This document shows, piece after piece, positions 1-13,618 of a stretch of 64,000 nt of DNA; the stretch's first letter is position 1, and each line of letters opens with the position of its first letter. The translations under genes and the position numbers were made by a program. Where the stretch lies: positions 1,248,001-1,312,000 of the forward strand of contig CAVTBR010000001.1 of the NCBI GenBank assembly GCA_963733055.1. The letters run 5' to 3'. The notes beneath the pieces were generated by a model. That model made no database searches and had not been told where the DNA came from. It worked only from the letters and a program-made list of their open reading frames with translations. Origin of the DNA: Candidatus Bathyarchaeota archaeon. Its GTDB lineage: Archaea > Thermoproteota > Bathyarchaeia > 40CM-2-53-6.

Positions 1-648
1 AGGTACCTTCAAACCGGAGGACGAGTAGGATATGTGTCCGCGATGAGGCCGCCAGAAGCGGTCAAGAAAGATTTAGCGAAATTGGACATCGACGTCTCCG
101 CGGCCATAGCCGAACGGCGTCTTAACGTGGACGATTGGTATACTGCAACTCTCACGGGAGGTCGGATTACCACCGAGCAGGAAAAGACAGGTTTGTTGGA
201 GCCGATTGATGGAGGTACTCGTGTGCGGTCTATAAAAGTCGCTGACTTGAGCGTTGAATGGCTTAGATTGTCAAAGGAAGGTCCACGGCCGTTTGACGTA
301 ATTGAAACTTGGCCGCCGGGGGCCTTGACGATCTTCGACTCTCTTACTGAGGTAACGCGATTTAATGAAGAAAATTCCTACTTGGAATACGCAATTACTC
401 GAGGCTGGACGAATGAGCGTAAAGCGAAAAGAATTCGGATCGGTGGAGTTGCTCGCGGTGTTCAGGCAGAGTCATTCTATAAGCGACTCGAAGGCGCGAG
501 CGATGGAATCATAGACCTCCGAGTGATGGAACGCGATGATGAAGCGAAAAACTTCCTCCGGGTTAGGAGCCTGAAAGGCCAGCCACATGACGCCCGCTGG
601 CATGAGATAGAACTCAAACCAAACGGGGAAACAATGCTGGTCAGCTAG
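1..648 (+). CDS. KaiC/RAD55-like (RecA-fold) single-domain protein, 5'-truncated by window edge
   Basis: Frame open from base 1; 'IFDSL', 'ASDGIIDLRV', 'LRVRSLKGQPHDARWH' match the KaiC-like C-terminal pattern; paralogous to 8393, 11270 and 12043. Confidence 0.75.
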   Translation, partial: RYLQTGGRVGYVSAMRPPEAVKKDLAKLDIDVSAAIAERRLNVDDWYTATLTGGRITTEQEKTGLLEPIDGGTRVRSIKVADLSVEWLRLSKEGPRPFDVIETWPPGALTIFDSLTEVTRFNEENSYLEYAITRGWTNERKAKRIRIGGVARGVQAESFYKRLEGASDGIIDLRVMERDDEAKNFLRVRSLKGQPHDARWHEIELKPNGETMLVS

Positions 649-655
649 GCTCTTG

Positions 656-687
656 GTGTGTGTGCGCACCATTAGACCCACACACAC
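656..687 (+). repeat. Intergenic repeat copy 1: GTGTGTGTGCGCA-CCATTA-GACCCACACACAC (imperfect inverted arms, 6-bp centre)
   Basis: 660-685 is 25/26 identical to 2582-2607. Confidence 0.85.
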
Positions 688-699
688 AAAACTAACTGG

Positions 700-927
700 A
701 TGCTGATCTCACTCGAAAACAAGGATCTGGTGAAACTGCCACCAAAACTTACCTTACTTTGTGCCGAATGCAACGCCCCGTTCGAGAAGATTGGCTGGAT
801 TATTGGGACAAGAGCCGGTATCGGAGGTATCCCCGGCTACGCTTGGTACTACGTCAAGTGTCCCAACTGTGGCAAACGGCACTGGAACAAACTCATTCAC
901 CTGGAAATTGGCAAACGGCCACAATGA
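700..927 (+). CDS. Small zinc-ribbon protein
   Basis: CAEC and CPNC motifs, 75 aa. Confidence 0.65.
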   Translation: MLISLENKDLVKLPPKLTLLCAECNAPFEKIGWIIGTRAGIGGIPGYAWYYVKCPNCGKRHWNKLIHLEIGKRPQ

Positions 928-1160
928 ATGCTGAGAATGCCAAGGTCCTCCGGGTTGAGGACATCTGACACGGTGTCACCGTGAGATAAGAGAGGAAAGA
1001 CCCGCTGGAAGGGTTGAGTGAATTGGTTTCTCGCGATCACGTGATGCATGAATGATTCATTCATTCTGTTTATCACCGGCCGCGACGTTTCGTCGGTCGT
1101 AAGGATGTGTGAGAAGAGTTGTACTCGCAACCGTTGAAAAGAGCTAGGAGAGTGAGTGGA

Positions 1161-2567
1161 ATGTTTGAACGCAGGACTGCGGTTGTGGTTCTTGCCGCCC
1201 TCATCATAGTGGGTCTGCTGATAGGTACAGTGGGCACTTGGATTTACTTTGCGAACCCTGCTTCAAGCAATAACAGCCTCCTCAGTTCAACTTCATTTTC
1301 AATCTCATCCACGGCATCGCAGGAAATTGCATGTTCCAACGTCGCCCAATATGACGAGAGCATACCCCCCGCTTACCAGTCTATGTACACTACGTTGAGC
1401 CAGATTTTGGACGACTTCAACCAGACCGTAAGCGGAACCCCGCCGACGGCAAGCCATGGAGTAATCTATGCTACTGAATTGCTTCCGGCAGATTCGAACA
1501 TAGGCGAAAGGCTCCTCGCGCCGCAGGTGATGCAAGGCGTTGTCAACTTTCTAAACGGAATCCAGAAACTAGGCGTTGAGGGCGTCACAATCGACGTATC
1601 CTACCCGATCCTGGTTCCGTCGTTCCCGAACTACACTCAGTACCTGAATTTCTACGAGAACGTTGTCGAGCAGGTCCGAGCTAGAGGAATGAAGATAGAC
1701 ATAGAGTCGGAGACTCCCCTACTGGTTGGGTACCCTGGTCTCTCACTGGGTTCTGTGAACTACGCGAACCTGAGTTACGACAACTATGTGAGTGAAGATA
1801 GGACAATGATTCAAACAGTGATAAGCGACCTACACCCCGACTACCTGAACATAGGAACCGAAACCGACACGTTACAAATACTCCTCCCCTACTCAGAGAT
1901 CAGCACCCCCCAAGGATGGGGCACGTACATCAATTCCTTACTCACAGGATTGAACAAAGGTAGCACGAAAATTAATGTTGGAATCGGCACCTGGGATCCT
2001 ATCAGCTACCTATATGCTACACTCAACAATTCAGCAATAGATGCCATCGACATCCACATCTACCCAGTCTACGGCAACTATCTTTCAATTCTAACCCAGA
2101 TAGGCCAGCTCTCCCGACAGTACGGCAAACCAATCGTTATCGATGAAATGTGGCTCCACAAGAGCACAATGAATGAAGGCCACAACTTCGCCACGGACGC
2201 GGGAATCTCAGCCCGAAACATGTACGCTTTCTGGGCTCCCCTCGACGAGAAATTCTTGAAGGTCATGGCGACGTACTCGCAAGTCTACAATGTTGCCTTC
2301 ATATCGCCCTTCGAATCCACGTACTTCTTCGCGTACCTGAACTACACCTCTAGCTCGGCCAGCGTGCCATACTATGAAGCGAGACAGGTGTCATCCCGAG
2401 CCGCCGCCTACAACCTCGCAAACGGCCTCATATCTCCCCTAGGCTGCTACTACCAAAGCATGATCAAGAACCTGACACCGCTTAGCATCTCATCTTTCGC
2501 AACCGAGACCATGCTTAGCTCCGCTGTACAATGTGAAGTTCCGTCGATCCGATGCGAAAGACGGTAA
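1161..2567 (+). CDS. Membrane-anchored secreted glycoside hydrolase, clan GH-A-like TIM barrel
   Basis: N-terminal TM and Ser-rich linker; 'LNIGTE', 'DIHIYP', 'KPIVIDE' resemble GH-A acid/base and nucleophile motifs; ATG 1161 chosen over TTG 1119. Confidence 0.6.
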   Translation: MFERRTAVVVLAALIIVGLLIGTVGTWIYFANPASSNNSLLSSTSFSISSTASQEIACSNVAQYDESIPPAYQSMYTTLSQILDDFNQTVSGTPPTASHGVIYATELLPADSNIGERLLAPQVMQGVVNFLNGIQKLGVEGVTIDVSYPILVPSFPNYTQYLNFYENVVEQVRARGMKIDIESETPLLVGYPGLSLGSVNYANLSYDNYVSEDRTMIQTVISDLHPDYLNIGTETDTLQILLPYSEISTPQGWGTYINSLLTGLNKGSTKINVGIGTWDPISYLYATLNNSAIDAIDIHIYPVYGNYLSILTQIGQLSRQYGKPIVIDEMWLHKSTMNEGHNFATDAGISARNMYAFWAPLDEKFLKVMATYSQVYNVAFISPFESTYFFAYLNYTSSSASVPYYEARQVSSRAAAYNLANGLISPLGCYYQSMIKNLTPLSISSFATETMLSSAVQCEVPSIRCERR

Positions 2568-2581
2568 GCTTGCAGGAGGCC

Positions 2582-2607
2582 GTGTGCGCACCATCAGACC
2601 CACACAC
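2582..2607 (+). repeat. Intergenic repeat copy 2: GTGTGCGCA-CCATCA-GACCCACACAC
   Basis: Direct repeat of 660-685. Confidence 0.85.
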
Positions 2608-2623
2608 CTATTCAGTCCTGGAT

Positions 2624-2833
2624 TCAGCGTTCGATCTTGAAACCGATCCTCACGACTGCCTGGAATTGACTCACTTTGTTTTCCTTGATGGTTCCCCTGA
2701 ACTGGGTTGCTTCGAACCATTGCATTTGCTTGACGGTCTTCCCTGCTTCCTCAACGGCATTTCTAACTGCGTTCGCAAAGCTCTCATTTGATTCACCAAT
2801 AACCTCGATAATCTTCCAAACCAAATCGCTCAC
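2624..2833 (-). CDS. Dodecin family flavin-binding protein
   Basis: 'WKIIEVIGES..SFANAVRNAVEEAGKT..WFE..FQAVVRIGFKIE'; GTG start preceded by GGGGAG. Confidence 0.9.
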   Translation of the reverse strand: MSDLVWKIIEVIGESNESFANAVRNAVEEAGKTVKQMQWFEATQFRGTIKENKVSQFQAVVRIGFKIER

Positions 2834-2877
2834 CTCCCCAAACCAAACACTTGCATGATGGTTCAAAACTACTATTT

Positions 2878-2909
2878 GTGTGTGTTTGGTTCGGCTGGCG
2901 CTCACACAC
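2878..2909 (-). repeat. Intergenic repeat copy 3, inverted with divergent centre
   Basis: Reverse complement GTGTGTGAGCGCCAGCCGAACCAAACACACAC is 21/32 identical to copy 1, same length, outer arms conserved. Confidence 0.6.
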
Positions 2910-2997
2910 TAAAGTGAAGAGAGAGAATCCAACCTAACAGCTAATACTGTATTCTCGGAACAGATTTCGAAGAAATCTTAGGAGTGAATTATCCAAA

Positions 2998-3966
2998 ATG
3001 CAGGGCATTCTTTACCTCTCTCGTAAGGACGTTGAGGTTCTTGATTTCAGGATGATAGACGTAATCGCTGCCGTGGAGGAAGCCTTCAAAGAGAGAGGGA
3101 CAGGAGGGGCGGAAATGCCTCCCAAGCCTGGAGTTCACCCTCCTCATGATGCTTTCATCCATGCAATGCCAGCTTACCTTCCGGGTATGTCGGCTGTTGG
3201 AGTGAAATGGGTAAGCGGGTACCCGGAGAACTTCAAACAGGGACTGCCTTACATCTCGGGGTTGATAATTCTGAACGATCCGAAGACGGGTTTGCCGATT
3301 TCTGTGATGGATGCAACGTGGATAACCGCTAAGCGCACCGGAGCAGCCACAGCTTTGGCCGCCAAGTATCTTGCGAGACCAGAATCGAAGATTGTCGGAA
3401 TCATTGGTTGCGGAGTTCAGGGACGGAGCAACCTGGAAGCGCTCGAGGCGCTAATGAAACTTGAAGAGGTCAGAGCCCACGATACTTCATCCGCAAACCT
3501 TCACCGGTACGTCGAAGAGATGACGACGAAATTCAGCATTAAAGTGAAACCGGTTAACAGTCCCCGAGAAGCCGTCGAGGGGTCAGATATTATTGTGACC
3601 GCTGGGCCAATCTTGAAGCACCCAAGTCCAATCATTGAGAAGTCTTGGCTGAAGGCTGGGGTATTCGCATCTCCTGTAGACTTCGATTCTTACTGGAAGC
3701 CTGAAGCTATGCGGACGATGGATAAATTCTACACCGACGATATCCAGCAGCTGGAGTACTATAGATCGACAGGATACTTCCAAAACCTTCCCAGTGTCTA
3801 CGCGGAATTGGGGGAAGTAGTGGCTGGTCGCAAAGCCGGAAGAGAAAGTGCGGACGAGCGGATTATGTCGATGAATCTGGGTGTCGCAATTGAGGACGTT
3901 GCGGTCGCGGCGCAGATTTACCGAGAGGCAAGGAGAAAAGGAGTAGGGAAAGAGCTGTCCCTGTAA
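2998..3966 (+). CDS. Ornithine cyclodeaminase/mu-crystallin family protein (archaeal alanine dehydrogenase-like)
   Basis: 'HAMPAY', 'GVKWVS..PEN', 'ITAKRTGAA', Rossmann 'GCGVQG', 'GVAIEDVA'. Confidence 0.9.
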   Translation: MQGILYLSRKDVEVLDFRMIDVIAAVEEAFKERGTGGAEMPPKPGVHPPHDAFIHAMPAYLPGMSAVGVKWVSGYPENFKQGLPYISGLIILNDPKTGLPISVMDATWITAKRTGAATALAAKYLARPESKIVGIIGCGVQGRSNLEALEALMKLEEVRAHDTSSANLHRYVEEMTTKFSIKVKPVNSPREAVEGSDIIVTAGPILKHPSPIIEKSWLKAGVFASPVDFDSYWKPEAMRTMDKFYTDDIQQLEYYRSTGYFQNLPSVYAELGEVVAGRKAGRESADERIMSMNLGVAIEDVAVAAQIYREARRKGVGKELSL

Positions 3967-3979
3967 TGGTCTTGCGAGT

Positions 3980-4609
3980 TCAACCTACCGTCAATATTGT
4001 CTGTGCAAAGTCTCCCTGGTTCCCCGTGACCTGAACAACATACGAGCCGGGCAGAACATTTCCGACAATGAAACCACCATAAGCGGTCCCGCCTTGGACG
4101 ACGCACGCAGCCGTACCCGGTAGGATTGGGTTCGGAGAAGAGGGACTGGAGAGTTGGCAGGTTGTATCCGTTGGGAGTAGGCCAGTGGCTTGAATCGAGA
4201 CTCTAGATCCGGCCTGAAGGCTAACGGGGTTGCTCATGCCAGACTGGCTGGTGCTTCCACCTACTTGGATAATGGCTTGCGCGAAGTCCCCATCATTTCC
4301 TGTGACTTGAATCACGTACGAGCCGGGTAAGACGTTTCCAACGATGAAACCACCGTCAGGCGCGCCGGTTCCGACTTGAACGACACAAGCTGAGTTAATG
4401 AAGAGTGAGTTTGACGAAGGGCTTGAAACATTGCAAGTCGTATCAGTTGGTAGGAAGCCCGTGCCGCTGAATGACACCTCGTGGTTCGAGCCGCCGCTTA
4501 ACGCGATCACAGGTTCAGATTGAACGGACAGGAGTAGAGTGCTAGCTGCGGAGATCAGAAGGGCACACACTAGGATCGTTCCGATGAGTCTCAACGGTAA
4601 CCCATCCAT
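3980..4609 (-). CDS. Secreted protein with two tandem ~70-aa beta-rich repeats
   Basis: Signal peptide; 'LPTDTTC..SSPSS...ACVVQ...GGFIVGNVLPGSYV.QVTGN.GDFAQ' occurs twice. Confidence 0.7.
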   Translation of the reverse strand: MDGLPLRLIGTILVCALLISAASTLLLSVQSEPVIALSGGSNHEVSFSGTGFLPTDTTCNVSSPSSNSLFINSACVVQVGTGAPDGGFIVGNVLPGSYVIQVTGNDGDFAQAIIQVGGSTSQSGMSNPVSLQAGSRVSIQATGLLPTDTTCQLSSPSSPNPILPGTAACVVQGGTAYGGFIVGNVLPGSYVVQVTGNQGDFAQTILTVG

Positions 4610-4681
4610 TCTCCTATCATGGAATTATTGTTTGTGATAGGGAGGCATAACTGAAATCATGATATGAGCGTCGTCTAGTGA

Positions 4682-5635
4682 TTAGGATGGACGAATGCCT
4701 TCTGTTCTTTTCAGAACGCGGAGTGCGGTAAGAGTGATCCATTTGCTCGGCTTTCCCTCTACTTCCAACGCAAATGGTTTAGGCCGTTTTCTTAAACGAT
4801 AGCTCGCACCAACGCCTAGGTCGGGGTGGATGGCGTCGAGGGCCCATCTCCCGTCAGGCCTGAGCTTGTTCTGTAAGATTTGTAGGGCTGGTTTCAAGCG
4901 TCGGTCGTCTGCGTATCCGAGACCGGTTATGATATCTAAACCGACGAGTAGGTCGTAGTAGTAGTGGACCGGGTAGTGGAACCTGAGCCAAGGCGGGTAG
5001 CTATGCCCCTCTCTGAACAGTTTCCGCTCTAAGTAGAATTCCGCACCTCGCTCAGCAGAGCGTTTGATTCCTCGGGTACGCCGATTCCTAGGCAAGGCTG
5101 CGAAAGCTGCAAGGGCTTCCCAGCAGTCAAGAGTTCCTCTGGACGATTCAAAACAGTGCCACCCTCCGTCTTCTTTTTGATCTTCAACCAGTCTATCAAA
5201 TAATCTTCTCACTCTAGGATCGTCTTCGTATCCAAAACGGGTCAGCATCCGAGCCGTGTTGCCTACAATGCATACTTCATCGTTGAAAATATTCTCCGCG
5301 GAAGGTAATGGAAGCCATTGCTTGAAGAATAAATCGGCAGCCTTTCTGACCCATTTGTTTTCCTTAGTTAACCCCAGATCGGAGAGAATGAGTGCCATCC
5401 AGTTTGTCGCCCTGTACTTGGGCGTGTAGAGATTCTTACCTGACTCCCAGAACCCGCCAGCATTCTGCGCTTTGAGGATTTGATACACCCAGCCGAGTTT
5501 CGAAATATTGGAATGAGTCCTCCGAACTTCGTGGTTGTCTTTTGAATAGTCCAGTAAGTCCAGGAGCGTATAGTATCGGACGGATGGCTGATTAGGTTCC
5601 AACAGCCAATTCAAGACTTCTTGACCCGGTTTCAT
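4682..5635 (-). CDS. Prenyltransferase/squalene-cyclase-repeat (alpha/alpha barrel) protein
   Basis: QW-like motifs 'QNAGGFW', 'QKEDGGWHC', 'PDGRW'; 'YPVHYYYDLL'; paralog at 44432. Confidence 0.75.
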   Translation of the reverse strand: MKPGQEVLNWLLEPNQPSVRYYTLLDLLDYSKDNHEVRRTHSNISKLGWVYQILKAQNAGGFWESGKNLYTPKYRATNWMALILSDLGLTKENKWVRKAADLFFKQWLPLPSAENIFNDEVCIVGNTARMLTRFGYEDDPRVRRLFDRLVEDQKEDGGWHCFESSRGTLDCWEALAAFAALPRNRRTRGIKRSAERGAEFYLERKLFREGHSYPPWLRFHYPVHYYYDLLVGLDIITGLGYADDRRLKPALQILQNKLRPDGRWALDAIHPDLGVGASYRLRKRPKPFALEVEGKPSKWITLTALRVLKRTEGIRPS

Positions 5636-5783
5636 CAGTTAATCAGCTAGAATTCGTTTTGACGATACTTAAGCCGGATGATGACCCGTGATCCCCGTAC
5701 GTGCCTTTATTCTAGGCTATTGGGCGACGCAGCCATTTACTAGAGGTTATTTTCCGGGGCATACAAGAGCCGTCTGAGTAACA

Positions 5784-6338
5784 ATGGCTGTCTGGAACCT
5801 TGTGCTAAGCGGATACCCGGCGTCGGGGAAGTCTGTCCTAGCCAGACGGCTTGTTTCTGAAAACCCGGAATTTGTGCGCCTCAACGTAGACGATTTGAGG
5901 AAGATGTACTTCGGAGCCAGCGAACCCAAGGACGATGAGTTCGTTTACCACACAATAGCCACACTACGCGACTCAATACTTAGGAAACGGCGGAGCGTGG
6001 TGATTGACTCTACCGCCCCCCGAAACTCCACACGACATATGCTTCTTAGCACTAAAGTTTCAGGCGTCACAAGATTATTGGTCGTGATGATTGTCGGAAA
6101 GAACGAATTAGAAGTTCGAAACCGCCAACGTGGGATGGAGGGAGCCGTAGCGGCATGGGATAAGGTCTGGGAGAACCCAGTAGGACACGTGGCTATCGTG
6201 AATTTCAGAAACAACTCCCTAGCCGAATTCGAAACAAGCTACTACATTCTAACCGAGCTCCTAGCCAGTAAGGTTCATCCATTCAAACGCAAATTCCTCA
6301 AACACATCTACCCAAGAATCCTAAGGTCAACGGGTTGA
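5784..6338 (+). CDS. P-loop kinase (AAA_33/polynucleotide-kinase-like)
   Basis: Walker A 'GYPASGKS', 'LNVDDLR', 'VVIDST'. Confidence 0.8.
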   Translation: MAVWNLVLSGYPASGKSVLARRLVSENPEFVRLNVDDLRKMYFGASEPKDDEFVYHTIATLRDSILRKRRSVVIDSTAPRNSTRHMLLSTKVSGVTRLLVVMIVGKNELEVRNRQRGMEGAVAAWDKVWENPVGHVAIVNFRNNSLAEFETSYYILTELLASKVHPFKRKFLKHIYPRILRSTG

Positions 6339-6342
6339 CCTT
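6323..6342. terminator. Perfect hairpin AAGGTCAAC-GG-GTTGACCTT over the stop codon between convergent genes
   Basis: 9-bp perfect inverted repeat; terminator role inferred from position. Confidence 0.35.
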
Positions 6343-6366
6343 GTGTGCGCGTGGAATACCTACAAC
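6343..6366 (+). repeat. Degenerate intergenic repeat copy (GTGTGCGC...ACCTACA)
   Basis: Left arm identical to copies 1 and 2; 4 nt after stop codon. Confidence 0.4.
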
Positions 6367-6389
6367 TGGTTGATGCCCCAGTTTGAGCA

Positions 6390-7100
6390 TTAACCCAATT
6401 TATTTGCTTTCAGGAAAAGCGTGATGGCCGTGACGAAACTTAGAATCTTTGACGTGTCATTGAGCATTATGAACATCAAGTTGGAAGGGTATGAGAAACC
6501 GAAGAAGGCCCACACCGCGAATACAAAGAACATTCCTGCCAGCGAAAAAAGCGTGTATTTTGACACCTGAGTTAACGGCGATAATGTGAGAAGCGAGAAC
6601 GTCGAAATCTCAACGAGAAACAGGGGTAAGAAGAAGAGCAGCCGGTAAAGGGTTGGAGCAGGAGGAATCGGCGGGTATGTTCTGCTCATGACAATTAAGT
6701 CAAATGGGAGTTCAAATATCATCGGCGCCGCCGCCATGCCAACGAAGGCGCTCCCCACCGCAACCTTCACCCCGTGACTTCTACCCAGATACGCGATGAA
6801 CGTGAGCAGCCCAGAAATTTCCGTAACTGGGGTAATCGGGTTTGTAGGTGAAGTACTCAGCAAATGCTGTTGGCTTAATTGCACGGCATAGGTGACGATG
6901 GCAACGAGAAACGTTACCAAAGAAAGAATCCAGATTAGTATCAAGAAACCCCCAGCCGTCTTTCCAGGCCTCGTGATCTTGACTGGAGCAGTCAACCTCC
7001 TTCCAAGATACGTGAGCAAGACTGCAACGGCAAGAAGCATAACGGCCAAGAAGACTGCTTTACTGCCCAGGTATGGGGTCCACGTGCCGTATTGGGTCAA
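6390..7100 (-). CDS. Multi-pass membrane protein, unknown function
   Basis: About 7 hydrophobic segments. Confidence 0.7.
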   Translation of the reverse strand: MTQYGTWTPYLGSKAVFLAVMLLAVAVLLTYLGRRLTAPVKITRPGKTAGGFLILIWILSLVTFLVAIVTYAVQLSQQHLLSTSPTNPITPVTEISGLLTFIAYLGRSHGVKVAVGSAFVGMAAAPMIFELPFDLIVMSRTYPPIPPAPTLYRLLFFLPLFLVEISTFSLLTLSPLTQVSKYTLFSLAGMFFVFAVWAFFGFSYPSNLMFIMLNDTSKILSFVTAITLFLKANKLG

Positions 7101-7334
7101 GACTCGACATCTATCCTCTCAAGCGAGGGATTCCTTTCCGTTGCTATTATGCTGACTTGCCGAAAACCCGATTGACTCATCCGACTGCACTGGCATCACT
7201 CAACGGTCTTTTGCGCAAAACAGGACTTGAACCGCAGGGTGTAGGTCATTAGCAAATGAGTGTACACACTACGGAAATCGTCTCAACATCTTATTAGCAT
7301 CCCAACCCGTTGTCGTTGATGGGTTAGTAGGGGT

Positions 7335-8165
7335 ATGCGGAGCCGTTTCATCTTATTCCTAATGCTTCTAGCACTAGTTTGCCTGGTTCTTTCACCCTCA
7401 CAGGTAGCACACGCGACCACGACCATCACGCATGACAGCTCCGGATCTAATGACTGCGGGTCCTGCTCGACCCTGTCTTGGCCTATGACTGTGGGATCAG
7501 GTGCTAACGGCATCCTTCTTGTAGGCGTATCTTTGGAAGGGAGCTCATGCCACCCATTCCCAATTTGCACCGCTAACACCGTCACATATGGTGCGTCTTC
7601 GTTAACTTTAATCGGCCGGAATTTTGAAGAAAACGCCGTGAGTGAAATATGGTTTCTTCAACCCCCTACCGCGGGTACAGCCACAGTAACGGTCACCGTG
7701 AACGGTACCGCTGATTTCATGGTGGCAGGGTCGGTTTCGTTCTTCGGCGTTTCCGGATTTCATGATTTCACTCCCGGCCAGGGCCAGAGCACGAATCCGT
7801 CAGTAACGGTGAACGCCAACATGGGAGATGTGGTGTTTGATTGCGTCGTAACATTCACGGGCGAGGGCCATTATGGCAGTCTCGTTTGGAATAACCCACA
7901 ATCCCCTCAGTGGGAAATCGGTTTGGGTGGCGAGGTTAGCCAATTTGATGGGGGAGGAAGCTACCAACCCGCCGATCCGACAGTAACCAACGGTTGGCAC
8001 GCGACCACTCCCGGAAACATAGCGGACTGGGTAGACGTGGGGCTTGCACTGAGCCCAGTGAGTGCTCCGCCGATTCCGGAATATCCGCTTGGATTACCGC
8101 TACTCGCAATCTTCCTGATCGTAGGTTACGCAGTGATTCGACGCAACACCGCGCTGAGGAACTAG
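7335..8165 (+). CDS. Cell-surface protein with PEF-CTERM-like sorting signal
   Basis: Signal peptide; Thr/Gly/Val-rich beta domain; C-terminal 'IPEYP' + TM + RR. Confidence 0.75.
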   Translation: MRSRFILFLMLLALVCLVLSPSQVAHATTTITHDSSGSNDCGSCSTLSWPMTVGSGANGILLVGVSLEGSSCHPFPICTANTVTYGASSLTLIGRNFEENAVSEIWFLQPPTAGTATVTVTVNGTADFMVAGSVSFFGVSGFHDFTPGQGQSTNPSVTVNANMGDVVFDCVVTFTGEGHYGSLVWNNPQSPQWEIGLGGEVSQFDGGGSYQPADPTVTNGWHATTPGNIADWVDVGLALSPVSAPPIPEYPLGLPLLAIFLIVGYAVIRRNTALRN

Positions 8166-8270
8166 GAAAGAGAAGTTTCTGCTGGTTATTTCCTGAATAT
8201 TCGAGAGTAGATTTCGCGATTCGAGACCGAGTAGCCAATGGCTTGGTTGCGGGAGGATGCCATTTTGGGG

Positions 8271-8312
8271 ATAGTCCTTCCTGTGTGGGGGTATAGAGGT
8301 GTGGTGCGTGTG
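8271..8312 (-). repeat. Intergenic repeat copy, direct repeat of 9121-9156
   Basis: ATAGTCCTTCCTGTGTggGGGTATAG vs ATAGTCCTTCCTGTGTatGGGTATAG, 24/26 identical. Confidence 0.85.
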
Positions 8313-8392
8313 AGGCAAATGATTAGTCTCTCCTCAAGCTGAAGTTGATAAGGCAGATTTCAGTAAGATTTCCCGCCGAGTCGAAATTCTAG

Positions 8393-9124
8393 TTGCGCGC
8401 CGCCCTATCGATACCGATCCTGAAGCAAATGGTTCCAGGCGGTTTCCAATACGGACAGATTCTCATGGTTGTGTATGAGCCAGACTCGATCTGGTACGAC
8501 ACATCACTGACGATTACCGCTCTAGCGTTGAAGGAAGGAACAAGAGTCGAGTACCATACTTACGAGCACATTCCGGCCGAGGTTAGGTCATCTCTTTCGA
8601 AGCTAGGAGTGGAATTAAAGAAGCTTGAAGGGGAGGACAGACTGAGAATCCATGATAGCTACACCGGCCAAACAGGATTAGGCCAATCTGAAGCACCGAC
8701 AAAAAGCAAGGTTCCGATTCAACCTCTGAAACTCTCTGACTCCAGTATAGAGTTCGCGCAACACATCAAAGCAGGAATACCTGAACGAGACAGGAGACTC
8801 CTGCACATTGATGATAATATGGGCATTCTTCTTCAGTATAACGATGAGAAAACTGTCATCAACTTCGGGCGAACTCGAATGGTGCCCTGGGTACGAGCTC
8901 GTGAGACAACATATCTCGTTTCTATTCTAAGTGGAATCGCATCGGATGCTTTCTACAAACAGATCGGGTCGTTCTTTGACGGAATAATTGACTTCAAAGG
9001 TGAAGAGAAAGAAGGTCAAATCAAGCAATACTGTAGAATTAGAAGCATACGAGGTCAATCTTGCGATTCGCGATGGAGAAGCCTGGGAGTCTTGGATAAC
9101 GGGGAAGTTACACTATCGGTATAG
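8393..9124 (+). CDS. KaiC/RAD55-like protein with degenerate Walker A
   Basis: 'IPILKQMVPGGFQYGQILMVVYEPDS', 'DSY', 'FDGIIDFK', 'IRSIRGQSCDSRW'. Confidence 0.8.
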   Translation: MRAALSIPILKQMVPGGFQYGQILMVVYEPDSIWYDTSLTITALALKEGTRVEYHTYEHIPAEVRSSLSKLGVELKKLEGEDRLRIHDSYTGQTGLGQSEAPTKSKVPIQPLKLSDSSIEFAQHIKAGIPERDRRLLHIDDNMGILLQYNDEKTVINFGRTRMVPWVRARETTYLVSILSGIASDAFYKQIGSFFDGIIDFKGEEKEGQIKQYCRIRSIRGQSCDSRWRSLGVLDNGEVTLSV

Positions 9125-9158
9125 TCCTTCCTGTGTATGGGTATAGTTGTGCGTGCAT
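9121..9158 (-). repeat. Intergenic repeat copy overlapping the stop codon of the KaiC-like gene
   Basis: Reverse complement of 9133-9158 (ATGCACGCACAACTATACCCATACAC) is 19/26 identical to 660-685. Confidence 0.8.
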
Positions 9159-9228
9159 CCACATAATTTCAGTGAGGCGGCGCCAAGATTCCACATATCC
9201 TTAATATTGGTGATAGTCAACTCGACGT

Positions 9229-9642
9229 TTGGCGAGAGTGTTGGACCAAACTATAGTTCATTTTGAAATTCCCGCAAACAACCCCGAGAAGCTTTCTGAG
9301 TTCTACAAGAGCCTCTTCGGGTGGAAGTTTGAGAAGATGCCGATGCCTGGAGGGGCAGGGGGGGATTATTGGACGATTGAAACCAGACCCGGAACGGCCG
9401 GTAACATGGAAGAATCAATGAAAAGACCGGGTATTAATGGCGGGATGATGAAGAAAATGATGCCGAATCACGCGGTAACAAATTATGTGATGGTAGAGTC
9501 GGTAGACGAGTTTAGCAAGAAACTGGAGAAACTCGGCGGCAAGATAATCGTTCCGAAGACGCCGATTCCAGAGATGGGAGCCTTTGCCGTCGGCCTAGAT
9601 CCGGAAGGCAACCCTGTAGGGTTATTCGAGGGCAGCCAATAA
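9229..9642 (+). CDS. VOC/glyoxalase family protein
   Basis: 'IVHFEIPA', 'FYKSLFGW', 'GINGG', 'DPEGNPVGL'. Confidence 0.9.
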   Translation: MARVLDQTIVHFEIPANNPEKLSEFYKSLFGWKFEKMPMPGGAGGDYWTIETRPGTAGNMEESMKRPGINGGMMKKMMPNHAVTNYVMVESVDEFSKKLEKLGGKIIVPKTPIPEMGAFAVGLDPEGNPVGLFEGSQ

Positions 9643-9804
9643 CCGATATTTCTTCAACAGCATTTCCCCCATTACACGGGGGGATCAGCCTCACCTTTTC
9701 TGTTGTAGGCATCAGAATAACTCCGCACGCCTTCTCGGTGGAGAAAGTGCCCATCTGGCCCACGTGCTTAAGTCAACTCGAATGATGGTTAGGTTGGATA
9801 TGCA

Positions 9805-10335
9805 ATGTCAGCGGAGAATAAGCAGGCTATCAAGATCAAACCCAGTCTCGTACCGTTCACCTGGAAAGGCGCATTAGTGATTCTGCTGGGCCTTGTACTC
9901 TCTGTCGGGCTGTTCATTTTCCAATCGCTGATGCCGTTCCTCTTCGGTTTCGGCTTCCTGCTGCCCTTCGTCGGCCTTGGCTTAGTTGGTTTAGGATTCT
10001 TCATGGTCACGATTGGTTTGGTCCGTAGGAACATGTATACATATCAACTGACTGACGCTGACGTAATCATTCAGAAGCAGTTTCTTGGCCGTAGCGTTCG
10101 ACGCATCCCGCTCGCTTCAATAAGTGATGTGGAAGTCTCACAAAGTTTCGTGGGACGCCTTGCGGGGTACGGCAACATTGTTCCCATATCTAAGAGCGGC
10201 TACGGCCTCGTTCGAGGTATGGAGCGAACTGAGAATATCGTTGCCGAGATGACCAACGTCCCGAACCCAGACAAGGTAGCAAACCTAATCATGACTAGAA
10301 CCTCGGCTATGACAAGACTAGCGATCAATCAGTAG
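9805..10335 (+). CDS. Membrane protein with bacterial PH (bPH_2) domain
   Basis: 2 TM segments then 'YQLTD', 'IPLASISDVEVSQSFVGRLAGYGNI'. Confidence 0.8.
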   Translation: MSAENKQAIKIKPSLVPFTWKGALVILLGLVLSVGLFIFQSLMPFLFGFGFLLPFVGLGLVGLGFFMVTIGLVRRNMYTYQLTDADVIIQKQFLGRSVRRIPLASISDVEVSQSFVGRLAGYGNIVPISKSGYGLVRGMERTENIVAEMTNVPNPDKVANLIMTRTSAMTRLAINQ

Positions 10336-10503
10336 TACCACTATACGCACGTGAAGAGAAAGCTAAGTGTTGGATTAGCCACTATGAACTTCGACCCACA
10401 TGCGATGACACTTGCGGTTTTTACGGCAACCTGAAATGAAACTTCACGCGATTATTCTATTACATTTGGATTAAGTAATTTATACGAGCAGCCCAAAGCG
10501 ATC

Positions 10504-10788
10504 ATGATCTTCATGACCGCCGTCGTCGAATTTGACAGTAGAATCCACGACCTGGTTGAACAGGAAAATCAGTGCGAAGTCCTGTTCAACGACATCAAGA
10601 ATGGTAACGGAGACAACTCTCTGCGCTACCTTGCTCTCAGGGATGCCTGTAAAGAATTGAGGAAGGGGATAGTTAGAAGCGCCCTGTCGGCAGGACTAAC
10701 GAGAGAGAGCATCAACATGAAGATCAAGGAAGCAAGAACCCAACCGACACCTGCTCCCTCAAAACAGTCGAAGAAGAATCAGCAGTAG
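10504..10788 (+). CDS. Hypothetical helical protein
   Basis: 94-aa ORF with TATA-like TTTATA upstream. Confidence 0.5.
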   Translation: MIFMTAVVEFDSRIHDLVEQENQCEVLFNDIKNGNGDNSLRYLALRDACKELRKGIVRSALSAGLTRESINMKIKEARTQPTPAPSKQSKKNQQ

Positions 10789-10842
10789 ACACTTGAGCTG
10801 AGATAGAAAAAAGGGACTGCGAACTACACTCGAGACCTAAGC

Positions 10843-11133
10843 CTATCTGGCTTTTTGAAGGCCTTTCTTAACGTCATCGACTGTCATCGCAGGATGGAAC
10901 TCCACTTTCGCACCGATACCTTGGAACAGCGGTTCAGCTAGAACAGGAATCATATCAGCGCTTGCAAAATCCACTACGAATAATGCGGTCCTCTCGCCGC
11001 CTTCTTCGTAGAAGTATACGGCTTCAGGCTTTACCTTAGCTACGTAATTCTCTAAAGCCTTGAATCCGTTCGGATCCTGAAGCATTTTATTTCCCGCTTC
11101 TGTCGGAATCTTCGCACGAATTATGAATCTCGT
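10843..11133 (-). CDS. Small ferredoxin-like-fold protein (DUF3303/GYD-like), probable ACG start
   Basis: 'KPEAVYF..GERTA.FVVD...IPVLAEPLF..GAKVEFHPAM'; frame extends as (ACG)RFIIRAKIPTEAGNK with GAGGTGA 6 nt upstream. Confidence 0.75.
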   Translation of the reverse strand, partial: TRFIIRAKIPTEAGNKMLQDPNGFKALENYVAKVKPEAVYFYEEGGERTALFVVDFASADMIPVLAEPLFQGIGAKVEFHPAMTVDDVKKGLQKAR

Positions 11134-11269
11134 CTTCTCTCACCTCAACCATGGTTACCAAATGTTTCTCGATAATTAGCCTTCCCTCGACGACTCGACC
11201 TACATGGATTGATGGCGATATGGGCATCGTACACACAAAGTACAAATCTAGTGGGACAGAGCCTTTCCT

Positions 11270-11980
11270 GTGTTCTTGTTGCCGAGGATGCCTATAATCG
11301 AAGACTTGACCAAGGGATCTGTTCCCCCCGGATCCAACATTCTCGTTGAATTTGACCCGGCCTCGCAGTGGCTCAACGCCGCGATAACGATCGCGGCAGG
11401 CTGGGGAAAGAGTGGGGGGAGCATAAGTTACATTGCTAACTCCCAACCGCCAGACGACATTCGTTCGCAACTTCGAAGATTGGGCCTTAATGTTGAGGAG
11501 CTCGAAGGGAACGATCGGTTATGGATTACCGACCTATACAGCGCCTCGATTGGGCAGAAATCTAAAGAAAAGTACGGCGTTGATTCGCTGAAGGCCGCGG
11601 ACCTAAGCATTTACATAGGAAGAGAGGCGATGGGTGACTCACCAGCCCCTGAGTTTCTAGTGATATCGGATAACAATTCAATTCTCGATAGATTCAACGC
11701 CGAGAAAAATTGGGTAGAACTCTACTTAACCCGACCCATTCCGATGGCAAAACCGAGACAAATCACTCAAATCATAGGGTTCATGGCCGGCATCCACAGC
11801 CCCTGGGCCTACAAGCAACTCGAAGCCGCGGTTGACGGCGTCATCGATGTCAAGATTGATGACGTAAATGGGGAACGCAAGACATTCATTGGGATCCGAA
11901 ACATGCGGAACGTTGCCTTCGATTCGAGATGGCACGCAATGAAGGCCGGAGAAAACTTCGAAATCACACTCGAGAAGTAG
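11270..11980 (+). CDS. KaiC/RAD55-like protein with degenerate Walker A
   Basis: 'GSVPPGSNILVEFDPASQW', 'LEAAVDGVIDVK', 'IRNMRNVAFDSRW'; exact start uncertain (11270-11288). Confidence 0.8.
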   Translation: MFLLPRMPIIEDLTKGSVPPGSNILVEFDPASQWLNAAITIAAGWGKSGGSISYIANSQPPDDIRSQLRRLGLNVEELEGNDRLWITDLYSASIGQKSKEKYGVDSLKAADLSIYIGREAMGDSPAPEFLVISDNNSILDRFNAEKNWVELYLTRPIPMAKPRQITQIIGFMAGIHSPWAYKQLEAAVDGVIDVKIDDVNGERKTFIGIRNMRNVAFDSRWHAMKAGENFEITLEK

Positions 11981-12042
11981 ACGATCCACCATCGCCATCG
12001 TGTGTATCCTTATGATTCAGTAGAAGTTGAACGAGGAGTTTT

Positions 12043-12777
12043 TCAGTTCTTCTTCTTGGTAGGCTCCAAACTGACCGATAGATCTTCGCCCAAACGAAGA
12101 ATGTGTTTTGACGTGTCCACAGGTGCTCCTTTGAAGGCTCGGGCGCGTAGGATGTTTTCCATTTGGCCTTCGATCTCCTCTGTTCTCAGTTCAAAGACTC
12201 CGTCGGCGCTTGTCATCACTGATGTGTACAAGGCATCAGAATGTATTCCGCGGACAAACCCATCAATTACAATTCTTCCTTTAGTTACAAACCTGGAGAT
12301 CCATGTGCGATAGAACTTTAGGAAACTCTTCTCGTCAGAGGCCTCTACGACCTCGGAAACGTTGTCAAAAAGCCTAACGGTACCCGGCGTCCACTGGTCG
12401 AGAGACTTATTCGAGATTAGGCTAATGTCGGCTATGTTGAGGGACGGGAAGTGGTATTTTTCAGTGGATTGGCGCCCAGTTTTGAAGGTGAACGCGTCCG
12501 AGAGGACCAACCGCTCATCGGTCTCGAAAGCAGTAGCATCTAGACCTCTTGTTCGAAAATTCTCACGAATATCTGTTAATGGTCTTGAGGTGGATATGTA
12601 GAGCACCTCAGTTCCTTTACGAAGCATTTCGACTACCATATTCAAAATGAGCATCAACCATTGTGAATCCGCATCAAACAAGACCACAATCACCTGTCCA
12701 GCTTTCACAGGGCGGCGCAGCAGTTGTCCGATGACGGGCATTTCAACTAGCACCGTACTCTCAGCCTTGACTGTCAA
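12043..12777 (-). CDS. KaiC/RAD55-like protein with degenerate Walker A
   Basis: 'GQVIVVLFDADSQW', 'LFDNVS', 'SADGVFELR', 'RARAFKGAPVD'. Confidence 0.8.
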   Translation of the reverse strand: MTVKAESTVLVEMPVIGQLLRRPVKAGQVIVVLFDADSQWLMLILNMVVEMLRKGTEVLYISTSRPLTDIRENFRTRGLDATAFETDERLVLSDAFTFKTGRQSTEKYHFPSLNIADISLISNKSLDQWTPGTVRLFDNVSEVVEASDEKSFLKFYRTWISRFVTKGRIVIDGFVRGIHSDALYTSVMTSADGVFELRTEEIEGQMENILRARAFKGAPVDTSKHILRLGEDLSVSLEPTKKKN

Positions 12778-12811
12778 AGAAGCTCAACTACCTCGTAAGT
12801 CTGGCATTATT

Positions 12812-13618
12812 TTATTTGGCTAGTGGGGTGTATTGAGTAGAAGGTTTCGCTTTCGAATTTCCTAGAGACTCAGGGCTGTTATAGAGGAAGATCTTGCCAG
12901 CGATTGTCTCTCCTATCTTCGTAGCGTGGCTAGCGGATGGTACGTTGGATTCGGCAATCTCGTTGATCAGCGTGCGGACGTGCCTTGATTTCAGATAGAT
13001 GAGTCTTGCTTGGAAATTGTCTTTCATTACTCCCATTCTTCTGAATTGAGGCTCCACGTAGAGGCCGTGTGACCTTGCTATTTCGCCGACGATGGTCATC
13101 CACGCGATGCCCACGATTCTGTTTGCTATTCTGACTACGAAGCACTTGTCTCCGTTCTTGAGGGCGACTCCGACCCAGCGCCTGTTTGTTTCGGGTTGTG
13201 TAGACGCCATGAAGCGTTCTATTTCTTTCGCATCGTTGGCTATGCTCACATGATGTTTGAATCTGTGGTCTAAGGAAGCCCTGTCGACGTCCAACTGCCA
13301 GATGTTCCAAGCTTCCTTGGGGTGCTCTTCTACCCCGAGCTCTGAGAATATGTAACTGGAAGGCTTCAGCGTGTAGAACTGGTCGAATGCTTCCCTGGAT
13401 CTCGTGAAGATGGTACCTGTAGCCTCGTAGTTATCGTAAATGAACAGGCCATTCTTATCTCCCGCGGAGTTCTGAGAGATGAAAACTTCGCCTCCTGCTT
13501 CAAGAGCCTCTTTGGCCTCGTGACGGAGGATTGGGTCAAAGAACGACAGCCCTTTTGGCAAGCTACTGAGCTGCTCACCTAAGCTCTCTATCTTTGATAC
13601 CTGAACGATACTGGTCAT
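12812..13618 (-). CDS. GNAT family N-acetyltransferase with N-terminal extension
   Basis: 'HGLYVEPQFRRMGV' acetyl-CoA motif A; 'N.PS'. Confidence 0.75.
   Translation of the reverse strand: MTSIVQVSKIESLGEQLSSLPKGLSFFDPILRHEAKEALEAGGEVFISQNSAGDKNGLFIYDNYEATGTIFTRSREAFDQFYTLKPSSYIFSELGVEEHPKEAWNIWQLDVDRASLDHRFKHHVSIANDAKEIERFMASTQPETNRRWVGVALKNGDKCFVVRIANRIVGIAWMTIVGEIARSHGLYVEPQFRRMGVMKDNFQARLIYLKSRHVRTLINEIAESNVPSASHATKIGETIAGKIFLYNSPESLGNSKAKPSTQYTPLAK

Follow-up and report, generated by a model that had tools for sequence, protein, structure and literature searches.

What is the short repeat that stands between one small accessory gene and the next in a Bathyarchaeia genome, and which process left it there? 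The question is raised by a 64,000-nucleotide stretch of Candidatus Bathyarchaeota archaeon assembly GCA_963733055.1 (contig CAVTBR010000001.1, positions 1,248,001 to 1,312,000 of the forward strand; hereafter, the window), which corresponds to G000:C1:1248001-1312000, G000 being the 2.88-Mb genome and C1 to C3 its three contigs. A preliminary description of the window, made from its letters alone, saw in the repeat a recombination site of the dif or lox type. Based on the anatomy and distribution of the copies, on breakpoints relative to related genomes, and on the Cas1 genes of congeners, we lean toward a different origin: the repeats would be insertion joints made by a casposase (Cas1) at a leader and target derived from tRNA-Arg, later reshaped by repeat-mediated deletion, relocation, and inversion.

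The repeat in the window is genuine, with two strong copies (656-687 and 2582-2607) and five degenerate copies that belong to the same family. The pattern GTGTGCGCACCATYAGACCCACAC matches without mismatch at 660-683 and 2582-2605, which are the sole matches in the window at up to three mismatches (0.00 expected from 100 shuffles), and the strong copies constitute family D9 in a repeat search of the window. The copies, together with the module between the first two, are as follows.

656-687, plus strand: junction 1, full, with left tip GTGTGTGTG, 14-nt center CGCACCATTAGACC, and right tip CACACACAC (nhmmer E = 4.7e-10).
700-2567, plus strand: module between junctions 1 and 2, consisting of a Zn-ribbon open reading frame (ORF; 700-927) and a 482-aa ORF (1119-2567).
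2582-2607, plus strand: junction 2, full, with tip GTGTG, center CGCACCATCAGACC, and tip CACACAC (E = 2.3e-06).
2878-2909, minus strand: degenerate junction with tips retained and center altered (nhmmer E = 0.65, weak alone).
6343-6366, plus strand: degenerate junction 5 nt past the stop of an AAA_33 kinase gene; left border of a 4-kb block (6390-10335).
8261-8312, minus strand: junction variant (copy 8283-8312) with a CTATA-type center and a 5-nt insertion; left member of a direct repeat pair.
9111-9158, minus strand: junction variant (copy 9133-9158) with a CTATA center; right member of the direct repeat pair.
10336-10355, plus strand: half junction (copy 10336-10350) with center and right tip, no left tip, 1 nt past the stop of a bPH_2 gene.
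11215-11255, minus strand: junction-tip remnant upstream of a KaiC-like gene (11270-11980).

Junction 1 begins 8 nt past the stop of another KaiC-like gene (1-648), and its center differs by 1 nt from that of junction 2, which lies in direct orientation to it. The weaker copies were accepted on individual grounds. Copy 2878-2909, which separates a dodecin gene (2624-2905, minus strand) from a gene of the ornithine cyclodeaminase (OCD) family (2998-3966), was accepted because both arms are retained; its center is similar to the CGCACCAGCCGACC variant found at C2:201790. Copy 6343-6366 was accepted because it is orthologous to a repeat copy that follows the same kinase gene in the relative G019 (G019:C18:20885-20904), and copies 8283-8312 and 9133-9158 because they carry the CTATA center, a frequent variant, and are located in a 41-nt direct repeat pair (8261-8301 and 9111-9151, family D2, 80% identical), which flanks the KaiC-like gene at 8393-9124. 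The half copy at 10336-10350 agrees at 15 of 19 positions by eye (GTACCACTATACGCACGTG versus GCACCACTATACCCACACG), and an additional degenerate copy lies immediately left of the window (C1:1247689-1247715). Several statements of the preliminary description hold: the window copies are all intergenic in the ORF map, five of them start 1 to 15 nt past a stop codon (at 648, 2567, 6338, 9124, and 10335), and the gene content between copies amounts to one- or two-gene units in both orientations. Its 11-6-11 or 13-8-13 geometry has to be given up, the inverted part being merely GTGTGTG and CACACAC, 7 to 9 nt.

A profile built from the best copies of the genome returned 59 matches in G000 at E < 10 and 34 at E ≤ 0.01, and these 34 good copies reveal a composite site. 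Their center is 14 nt long in an ungapped alignment and starts with CGCA in 30 copies; within it lies a variable stretch of 5 to 6 nt, and in an information profile of 70 copies, conservation peaks at the asymmetric GCGCACCA. Twenty copies are full (GTGTGTG, 14 nt, CACACAC), four consist of a leader, the center, and the right tip, eight have the left tip only (two of which are full copies shifted by 1 nt), and two have the right tip only. The three kinds of site that result are those expected if elements insert at a target with a leader beside it. In a subset, about 14 of 52 copies by eye, the palindrome extends to about 45 nt per side and reads ATTTGAACCG-TCGTCGT-AAAA-GTGTGTG ... CACACAC-TTTT-ACGACGA-CGGTTCAAAT. 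Terminal inverted repeats are found as tips in 20 of the 34 copies, as these longer arms, and as repeats of 46 and 55 nt at the Cas1 units described below.

The leader ties the repeat to a tRNA. In the four leader-type copies, the left tip is replaced by a T-loop-like sequence, GTTCAAAT, followed by 5 plus 7 nt at the exact tRNA spacing to A-CCA; judged by eye, the T-stem no longer pairs. A functional split or mini tRNA was considered for these copies and ruled out by the unpaired T-stems and the missing D-arm, both assessed by eye. The tRNA-Arg(TCT) gene itself (C1:343231-343392) ends in GGCCGCACCA and is followed by nnAGACCCACAC-like sequence in five of six genomes, which diverge completely beyond about 14 nt. 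The remaining genome, G021, has a plain oligo-T trailer there, which looks like an empty site. Both the tRNA-Arg(TCT) end in the six genomes and the leader-type copies thus display what is expected of insertion at a tRNA 3' end with an upstream T-loop leader. Neighboring joints also resemble each other: centers differ by at most 1 of 8 nt in 13 of 54 adjacent pairs, junctions 1 and 2 of the window among them, versus 11% of all pairs, a value reached by 12 of 5000 permutations. Four adjacent pairs have identical centers, namely, C1:812913/814586 and a pair on G019:C10 (both enclosing a KaiC-like gene), one on G019:C40 (L016), and an inverted one on G019:C7 (L056). Several single cassettes are thus flanked by identical centers in direct orientation.

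The copies are far from evenly spread over the genome. C1 holds 23 of the good copies, C2 holds 11, and C3 (776 kb) none; 27 of the 34 have a neighbor within 3 kb, whereas random intergenic placement averages 2.1, with 10 as the highest value, and none of 2000 trials reached 27. By a crude ORF map, 31 of the 34 are intergenic. Within the islands, spacing is 0.4 to 1.7 kb, with about one copy per intergenic gap, and copies stand between convergent, divergent, and tandem genes alike. Copies outside the islands adjoin genes that have no DNA homolog in five relatives. With up to two mismatches allowed, 20 of 22 congeneric genomes contain the pattern, as do 2 from other genera of the order, and the reversed pattern has no match in the same genome set. 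Exact matches among 185,579 species genomes fall nearly all in Bathyarchaeia metagenome-assembled genomes (MAGs), among the matches listed (80 of at least 113 stretches), where chance would give about 4 matches for 19 fixed bases. For annotation of these MAGs, the repeat can serve to mark the accessory genome, and contig breaks are likely due to it. A few exact matches lie on short contigs of MAGs labeled Acidoferrum, Methylomirabilota, Terriglobia, or "uncultured bacterium" (L076, L113, L090, L100, and L080, two of the contigs stemming from one MAG); these are more likely misbinned Bathyarchaeia contigs than bacterial copies. IMG/VR viral contigs gave no exact match to the one pattern searched, which is weak evidence against a viral or plasmid carrier.

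Comparison with G019, a close relative whose proteins are 80 to 95% identical in the genes flanking the region, reveals rearrangements that coincide with the repeat or border on it. Over the 20 kb that precede the window on its left, G000 is collinear with G019:C2 except for one 2-kb indel without a repeat, and collinearity ends at the repeat region. From there on, G000 has in excess a KaiC-like gene, junction 1, and the Zn-ribbon ORF (about -302 to 1043 in window coordinates); the Zn-ribbon ORF and the right part of junction 1 (665-927) have their G019 counterparts at another locus, where they follow a leader-type site. The 482-aa gene (1119-2567) is syntenic in G019:C2, and directly after junction 2, the dodecin and OCD genes (about 2608-3960) are again extra in G000, with a single decayed copy at the place of junction 2 in G019. 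The 4-kb block 6390-10335 is missing at the G019 locus, where homology resumes about 40 nt past the half junction at 10336. The KaiC-like gene at 11270-11980 has its G019 ortholog (83% amino acid identity) in another island, where two full junctions whose centers are identical enclose it. More generally, the genes between 2000 and 20000 of the window map to many G019 contigs, and three neighboring genes of G019:C18 are scattered across 13 kb in G000.

Other islands of the genome behave alike. C1:531-539 kb and G019:C10:9.6-17.7 kb have common conserved flanks and different single genes, with a repeat between each. A 216-aa cassette is 93% identical in nucleotides between G000 and G019 exactly from repeat to repeat, and the DNA flanking it is unrelated. 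One G019 copy is a hybrid whose left side and center correspond to the G000 copy at 536910 and whose right flank corresponds to that at 533197; between these two, G000 holds 3.7 kb with five genes and four more copies. Peat metagenome contigs contain the same hybrid joint (3701>7412 and 3706>7433 on L017), as well as opposite-strand joints at the edges of two other copies, although these contigs may stem from G019-like populations and so are not independent support. Finally, C1:812-815 kb and G019:C1:63-71 kb have wholly different contents between conserved flanks and are bounded by orthologous repeat copies. We rely on such curated cases and not on an automatic census, in which 13 of 87 homology-block ends fell inside a repeat match, since true breaks and ordinary intergenic divergence are not told apart in the census and its loci were selected for the repeat. 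A "go back" joint (3113>2116 on L017) was considered as a trace of circular excision; it is explained by two look-alike repeat copies and is no evidence of a circle. The metagenome run closest to G000 (X1) gave short contigs only, at a depth of 2 to 4. Together, the breakpoints that coincide with or adjoin the repeat, whether of presence/absence, relocation, or inversion, support the view that the repeats are joints in the DNA and not RNA or regulatory elements. They bear out, with the clustering, the earlier idea of an accessory mosaic assembled at repeat sites, and the even spread without synteny breaks that the preliminary description had named as contrary to its proposal is not what the genomes show.

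How could such joints have arisen? A full copy may be read as the end tip of the element on its left (...GTGTGTG), a 14-bp target-site duplication (CGCACCAnnAGACC), and the tip of the element on its right (CACACAC...), in which case each copy would be the seam between neighboring insertions of a casposon-type family or of gene-sized nonautonomous derivatives. The original target would be the 3' end of tRNA-Arg(UCU), and the duplicated block begins with the 7 nt that close this tRNA, CGC-A-CCA; the T-loop upstream of the target would serve as the leader, and portable pseudo-tRNA copies of this leader would head arrays elsewhere. Each insertion would regenerate the target on both sides, allowing tandem stacking into arrays of one- or two-gene cassettes with a repeat between them, and later recombination among the short repeats would delete, move, and invert cassettes. 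The role of Cas1 in making the joints, the movement of genes one at a time, and this order of events are what we infer.

The family-2 casposons provide the model for this scheme. In the passages of Krupovic et al. (2016, PMC4779613) and Hickman et al. (2020, PMC6977970) that describe those of M. mazei, the elements are flanked by 14-bp duplications with an invariant 5'-CGCA overlapping the last 4 bp of tRNA-Leu, stand in tandem with a common duplication between them, and leave solo terminal repeats behind. The A. boonei casposase, as the relevant part of Beguin et al. (2016, PMC5137440) reports, requires the duplicated segment and an 18-bp upstream stretch with the T-loop. The repeats studied here are like the family-2 casposons of M. 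mazei and Aciduliprofundum boonei in having a putative 14-bp CGCA target at a tRNA 3' end with an upstream T-loop leader, in the apparent tandem stacking with one common duplication, and in the presence of enzyme-less remnants. The likeness extends to the enzyme of the congeners, a Cas1 of about 400 aa that, for the one ORF compared, is closest to the M. mazei casposase structure. Unlike those casposons, the units here are mostly single genes of 0.4 to 1.7 kb with tips of 7 to 9 nt, the target is tRNA-Arg and not tRNA-Leu or tRNA-Pro, the duplicated block is not AT-rich in its 3' part, and copies of the leader have been placed apart from the tRNA gene. A further difference is that dozens of joints are present per genome, in several islands, and that G000 has no Cas1.

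Evidence for a casposase comes from the congeners. ORFs for Cas1 are present in 12 of the 22, with lengths of 401 to 412 aa and Pfam Cas_Cas1 E values of 1e-49 to 1e-61; an example is the 404-aa ORF at L187:12751-13965. Among solved structures, one of the ORFs has its best relative in 6opm_A (E = 4.3e-69, residues 36-403), far ahead of the best other Cas1 entry (4.5e-21); we equate 6opm with the M. mazei casposase on the ground that PMC6977970 mentions the code twice. Of the 22 Cas1 hits in five relatives, 7 have a strict repeat copy no more than 5 kb away, where at most 8% would be expected (102 copies in 12.9 Mb; distances taken by hand). Three of the seven Cas1 loci retrieved (L187 to L193) were chosen for a nearby repeat; of the other four, two have a repeat match at E ≤ 0.01 within 3.5 kb. 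Casposase-like Cas1 genes lie inside the repeat arrays of relatives, and at two loci, the Cas1 unit itself is delimited: the 2.8-kb unit of L187 by 46-nt inverted repeats and the 9-kb unit of L191 by 55-nt inverted repeats, each containing the repeat. The domains encoded by the ORFs next to Cas1 include AIPR, NT5C, PAS/GAF, DNA methylase, ParB_N, TIR, and HEAT, the HEAT-repeat protein adjoining Cas1 at one locus, again as in family 2. The AIPR abortive-infection, TIR-domain, DNA methylase, and ParB_N proteins (L188:11657-13345, L191:10396-11160, and L193:9873-11879) are defense-like and plasmid-like cargo traveling with the casposase. About 0.8 kb upstream of the Cas1 gene of L191 (G015:C3), five head-to-tail copies of a 45-nt unit occupy positions 8054-8354.

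A number of results weigh against this origin of the joints and temper our preference for it. No Cas1 was found in G000 (0 matches) or in the motif-rich relatives G011, G013, G018, G019, and G021, and across the 22 congeners, neither Cas1 counts nor integrase counts correlate with repeat counts to the eye. Since G000 encodes no Cas1, its copies would be mobilized in trans, if at all, or are fossils. At L187 and L191, the two 14-nt centers are inverted relative to each other and not direct, as a simple target duplication requires; the sole explanations that we see are a later flip or a center that forms part of those ends. The flip is conceivable, as the 14-nt center may turn by recombination between its flanking inverted arms, and the G019:C7 pair, with identical centers in opposite orientations, would be an example. 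Direct target duplications around Cas1 units were not found, both ends being definable for L187 and L191 but not for L188, L189, L190, L192, and L193. None of 13 non-Cas1 ORFs beside Cas1 (immediate neighbors only, at six of the seven loci) has a family B polymerase domain, and thus the Cas1 units are not canonical self-synthesizing casposons. Among adjacent joints, 21 of 54 pairs are inverted, and most cassettes have merely tips of 7 to 9 nt and no long terminal repeats. A probe made from the inner arm of the L187 unit gave 67 high-scoring segment pairs in G000 (blastn-short), mostly noise, of which 4 were near a repeat copy. Lastly, most of the 11 Cas1 hits of G017 (a 73% complete genome) are far from strict repeat copies, which suggests that a second family of casposons, with different ends and targets, has recently expanded; several casposon families are probably present in the genus.

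Casposons are thought to be ancestral to the CRISPR adaptation machinery, and known ones are rare, large, and polymerase-carrying. Here, casposon-like joints punctuate dozens of single-gene cassettes and define hypervariable islands of a widespread archaeal genus of soil and peat. If Cas1 made these joints, it would be a general gene-stacking integrase, and the arrays would be natural repeat/insert arrays resembling a step between transposon and CRISPR locus. We entertain, as a tentative and rather doubtful extension, that a polymerase-less Bathyarchaeia casposon lineage turned into a gene-capture system, in which a Cas1 provided by a few master copies within the population inserts short-tipped, gene-sized DNA at a portable tRNA-like leader, duplicating the 14-bp CGCA target and growing leader-headed arrays. 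Such a system, if real, would be a living gene-scale counterpart of the CRISPR array and a Cas1-built functional analog of integrons. The comparison with CRISPR arrays goes this far: if each Cas1-type integration duplicated a leader-proximal target, repeats and inserts would come to alternate. It ends at the inserts, which here are genes of 0.4 to 4 kb, at the repeats, which are 14 nt plus element tips, and at cas2 and effector genes, which are missing. A search of the available literature found no paper linking casposons with Bathyarchaeia and, among the ten best matches, none relevant to nonautonomous or cassette casposons, although supplementary tables of casposon papers may list such elements.

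Integrons also come to mind, since integron arrays and clusters of attC sites lacking integron integrases (CALINs), including archaeal ones, are, in the sections of Ghaly et al. (2022, PMC9668308) that bear on them, single-gene arrays with a conserved imperfect palindrome, whose contents vary among close relatives, whose cassettes recur in other arrays, and which often have no integrase nearby. All of this is seen here as well. Integrons, however, have RYYYAAC/GTTRRRY boxes, structure-keeping covariation, an IntI, and sites of 57 to 141 nt; the present repeat has none of the first three, measures about 30 nt, and occurs with its genes in both orientations. The preliminary description was right that attC R-box ends are lacking, none being found at the tips. 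The inner TTTGAAC and GTTCAAA of the repeat each differ at 2 of 7 positions from the attC boxes, in the consensus that it had given.

The main rival to a casposase origin is a tyrosine integrase. The copies would then be core att sites comparable to dif, lox, or pdif, circular one-gene modules would enter a site derived from a tRNA-Arg attB and would excise or invert site by site, and the enzyme would be the Xer-like integrase of resident or visiting elements. We regard this as unlikely, with several facts in its favor. G000 has six Xer-like integrases and several classical elements with direct repeats of tRNA 3' ends; an integrase-less 978-bp element (C2:200883-201887) has a KaiC-like gene as its sole content, flanked at both ends by a repeat copy; and the two mapped crossovers fall in or beside the variable center, between partners that have a TTGAT center in common. 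Leader-type, full, and left-only sites and identical flanking cores are predicted by this model too. The sites themselves fit poorly, the arms agreeing at 7 of 11 positions around a conserved block that is asymmetric, and known tyrosine-recombinase sites do not have inverted arms of up to about 45 nt, a 14-nt center, or a CGCA start. The pdif/Xer-dif modules (11-6-11 sites), as treated in the parts of PMC8371274 concerned with them, are similar in that short inverted-end sites bracket small modules in both orientations while the enzyme is encoded elsewhere; the repeat differs from them by its inverted part of 7 to 9 nt around 14 nt, by its many copies per chromosome, and by the lack of both a XerA equivalog and a link to integrase genes.

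The search for the enzyme points the same way. The six PF00589 genes of G000 form one Xer-like integrase family scoring 45 to 69 bits against a XerA cutoff of 220, so no XerA equivalog was found among them, and none of the six is in an island. None of the 21 integrase hits in five relatives has a strict copy closer than 5 kb, and G011 and G018, with 27 and 18 strict copies, respectively, have no match to the family, with one member as query at E ≤ 1e-10. The classical elements, for their part, have tRNA repeats of 24 to 50 nt that end at CCA and exclude the repeat. The tyrosine-recombinase reading of the preliminary description is thus not sustained, and of its suggestion that the enzyme is encoded elsewhere, the location stands, in the stronger sense that the enzyme favored here is absent from G000 altogether, while the type of recombinase is unlikely.

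It is quite improbable, in our estimation, that no dedicated enzyme was involved, the copies being repetitive extragenic palindromic (REP) or bacterial interspersed mosaic element (BIME)-like sequences, or regulatory or terminator palindromes, in dispensable DNA, and the rearrangements homologous or microhomology recombination between dispersed 30-nt repeats. Copies are indeed intergenic, often just past stop codons and in both orientations, and many are flanked by AAAA...TTTT, like a two-way hairpin with a T-run. One G000 junction joins half a repeat at the microhomology TATCGAT/CATTGAT and looks illegitimate, not site specific, and the decay of an orthologous copy in G019 to 16/24 identity indicates that single copies are without strong constraint. 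Yet the copies avoid core regions, as the clustering and their absence from C3 demonstrate; the hairpin is weak (z scores of -0.2 to -3.4, with a 14- to 16-nt loop); at the seven stem pairs, 0 to 2 double (compensated) versus 12 to 28 one-sided changes per pair were counted among 70 copies; and conservation is highest in the "loop." Rfam has no match, the placement between convergent, divergent, and tandem genes alike does not suit such an element, and the Y1 transposase of REP-associated tyrosine transposases (RAYTs; PF01797) has 0 matches in G000, which has neither serine recombinases nor RAYT/IS200 elements. A REP origin would also leave the tRNA-like leader class, the 14-nt CGCA center, and the Cas1 neighborhood unexplained. 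An RNA element was rejected, window positions 1-13000 having no Rfam match at E ≤ 1 save a chance microRNA and the stems no covariation.

The commonest neighbor of the repeat is a degenerate KaiC-like protein family without a Walker A motif. Its 23 close paralogues, 13 of which have a repeat match within 400 nt, are about 240 aa long, match KaiC/RecA-like Pfam models weakly, have GSNILVEFDP at the position of GxxGxGKT, and have no sequence match in the PDB. Four members are located in the window (1-648, 8393-9124, 11270-11980, and 12043-12777), and another is the sole gene of the integrase-less 978-bp insertion at C2:200883-201887 (L025). This insertion is flanked by 27-nt direct repeats of a tRNA-Ser 3' end and carries one repeat copy on each side of its gene, and it shows that two kinds of joint, that of the tRNA-end element and that of the repeat, can be nested.

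The classical integrated elements lie outside the islands, each with an Xer-like integrase and direct repeats of a tRNA 3' end, at C1:1423416-1428528, C3:150470-154850, C3:503170/527886/546744, and C2:330438/409288. On C3, two of them stand in tandem. The tRNA-like repeat at C2:409288 and the 5' end of the integrase ORF overlap, an arrangement like that of the "suicidal" integrases of SSV type. Detection of the tRNA genes themselves was uneven in G000, which is rated 96% complete: 13 were above the Rfam cutoff, and ARAGORN gave 7 without introns and 33 with introns, some of them implausibly long. Many tRNA genes of this genome seem to be intron rich or otherwise atypical. Within the window, the 209-aa ORF at 3980-4609 (minus strand) contains a 105-nt internal duplication (3979-4083 and 4255-4359, 71% identical) and has weak transthyretin/CarboxypepD_reg-like matches, resembling a two-repeat secreted or surface protein.

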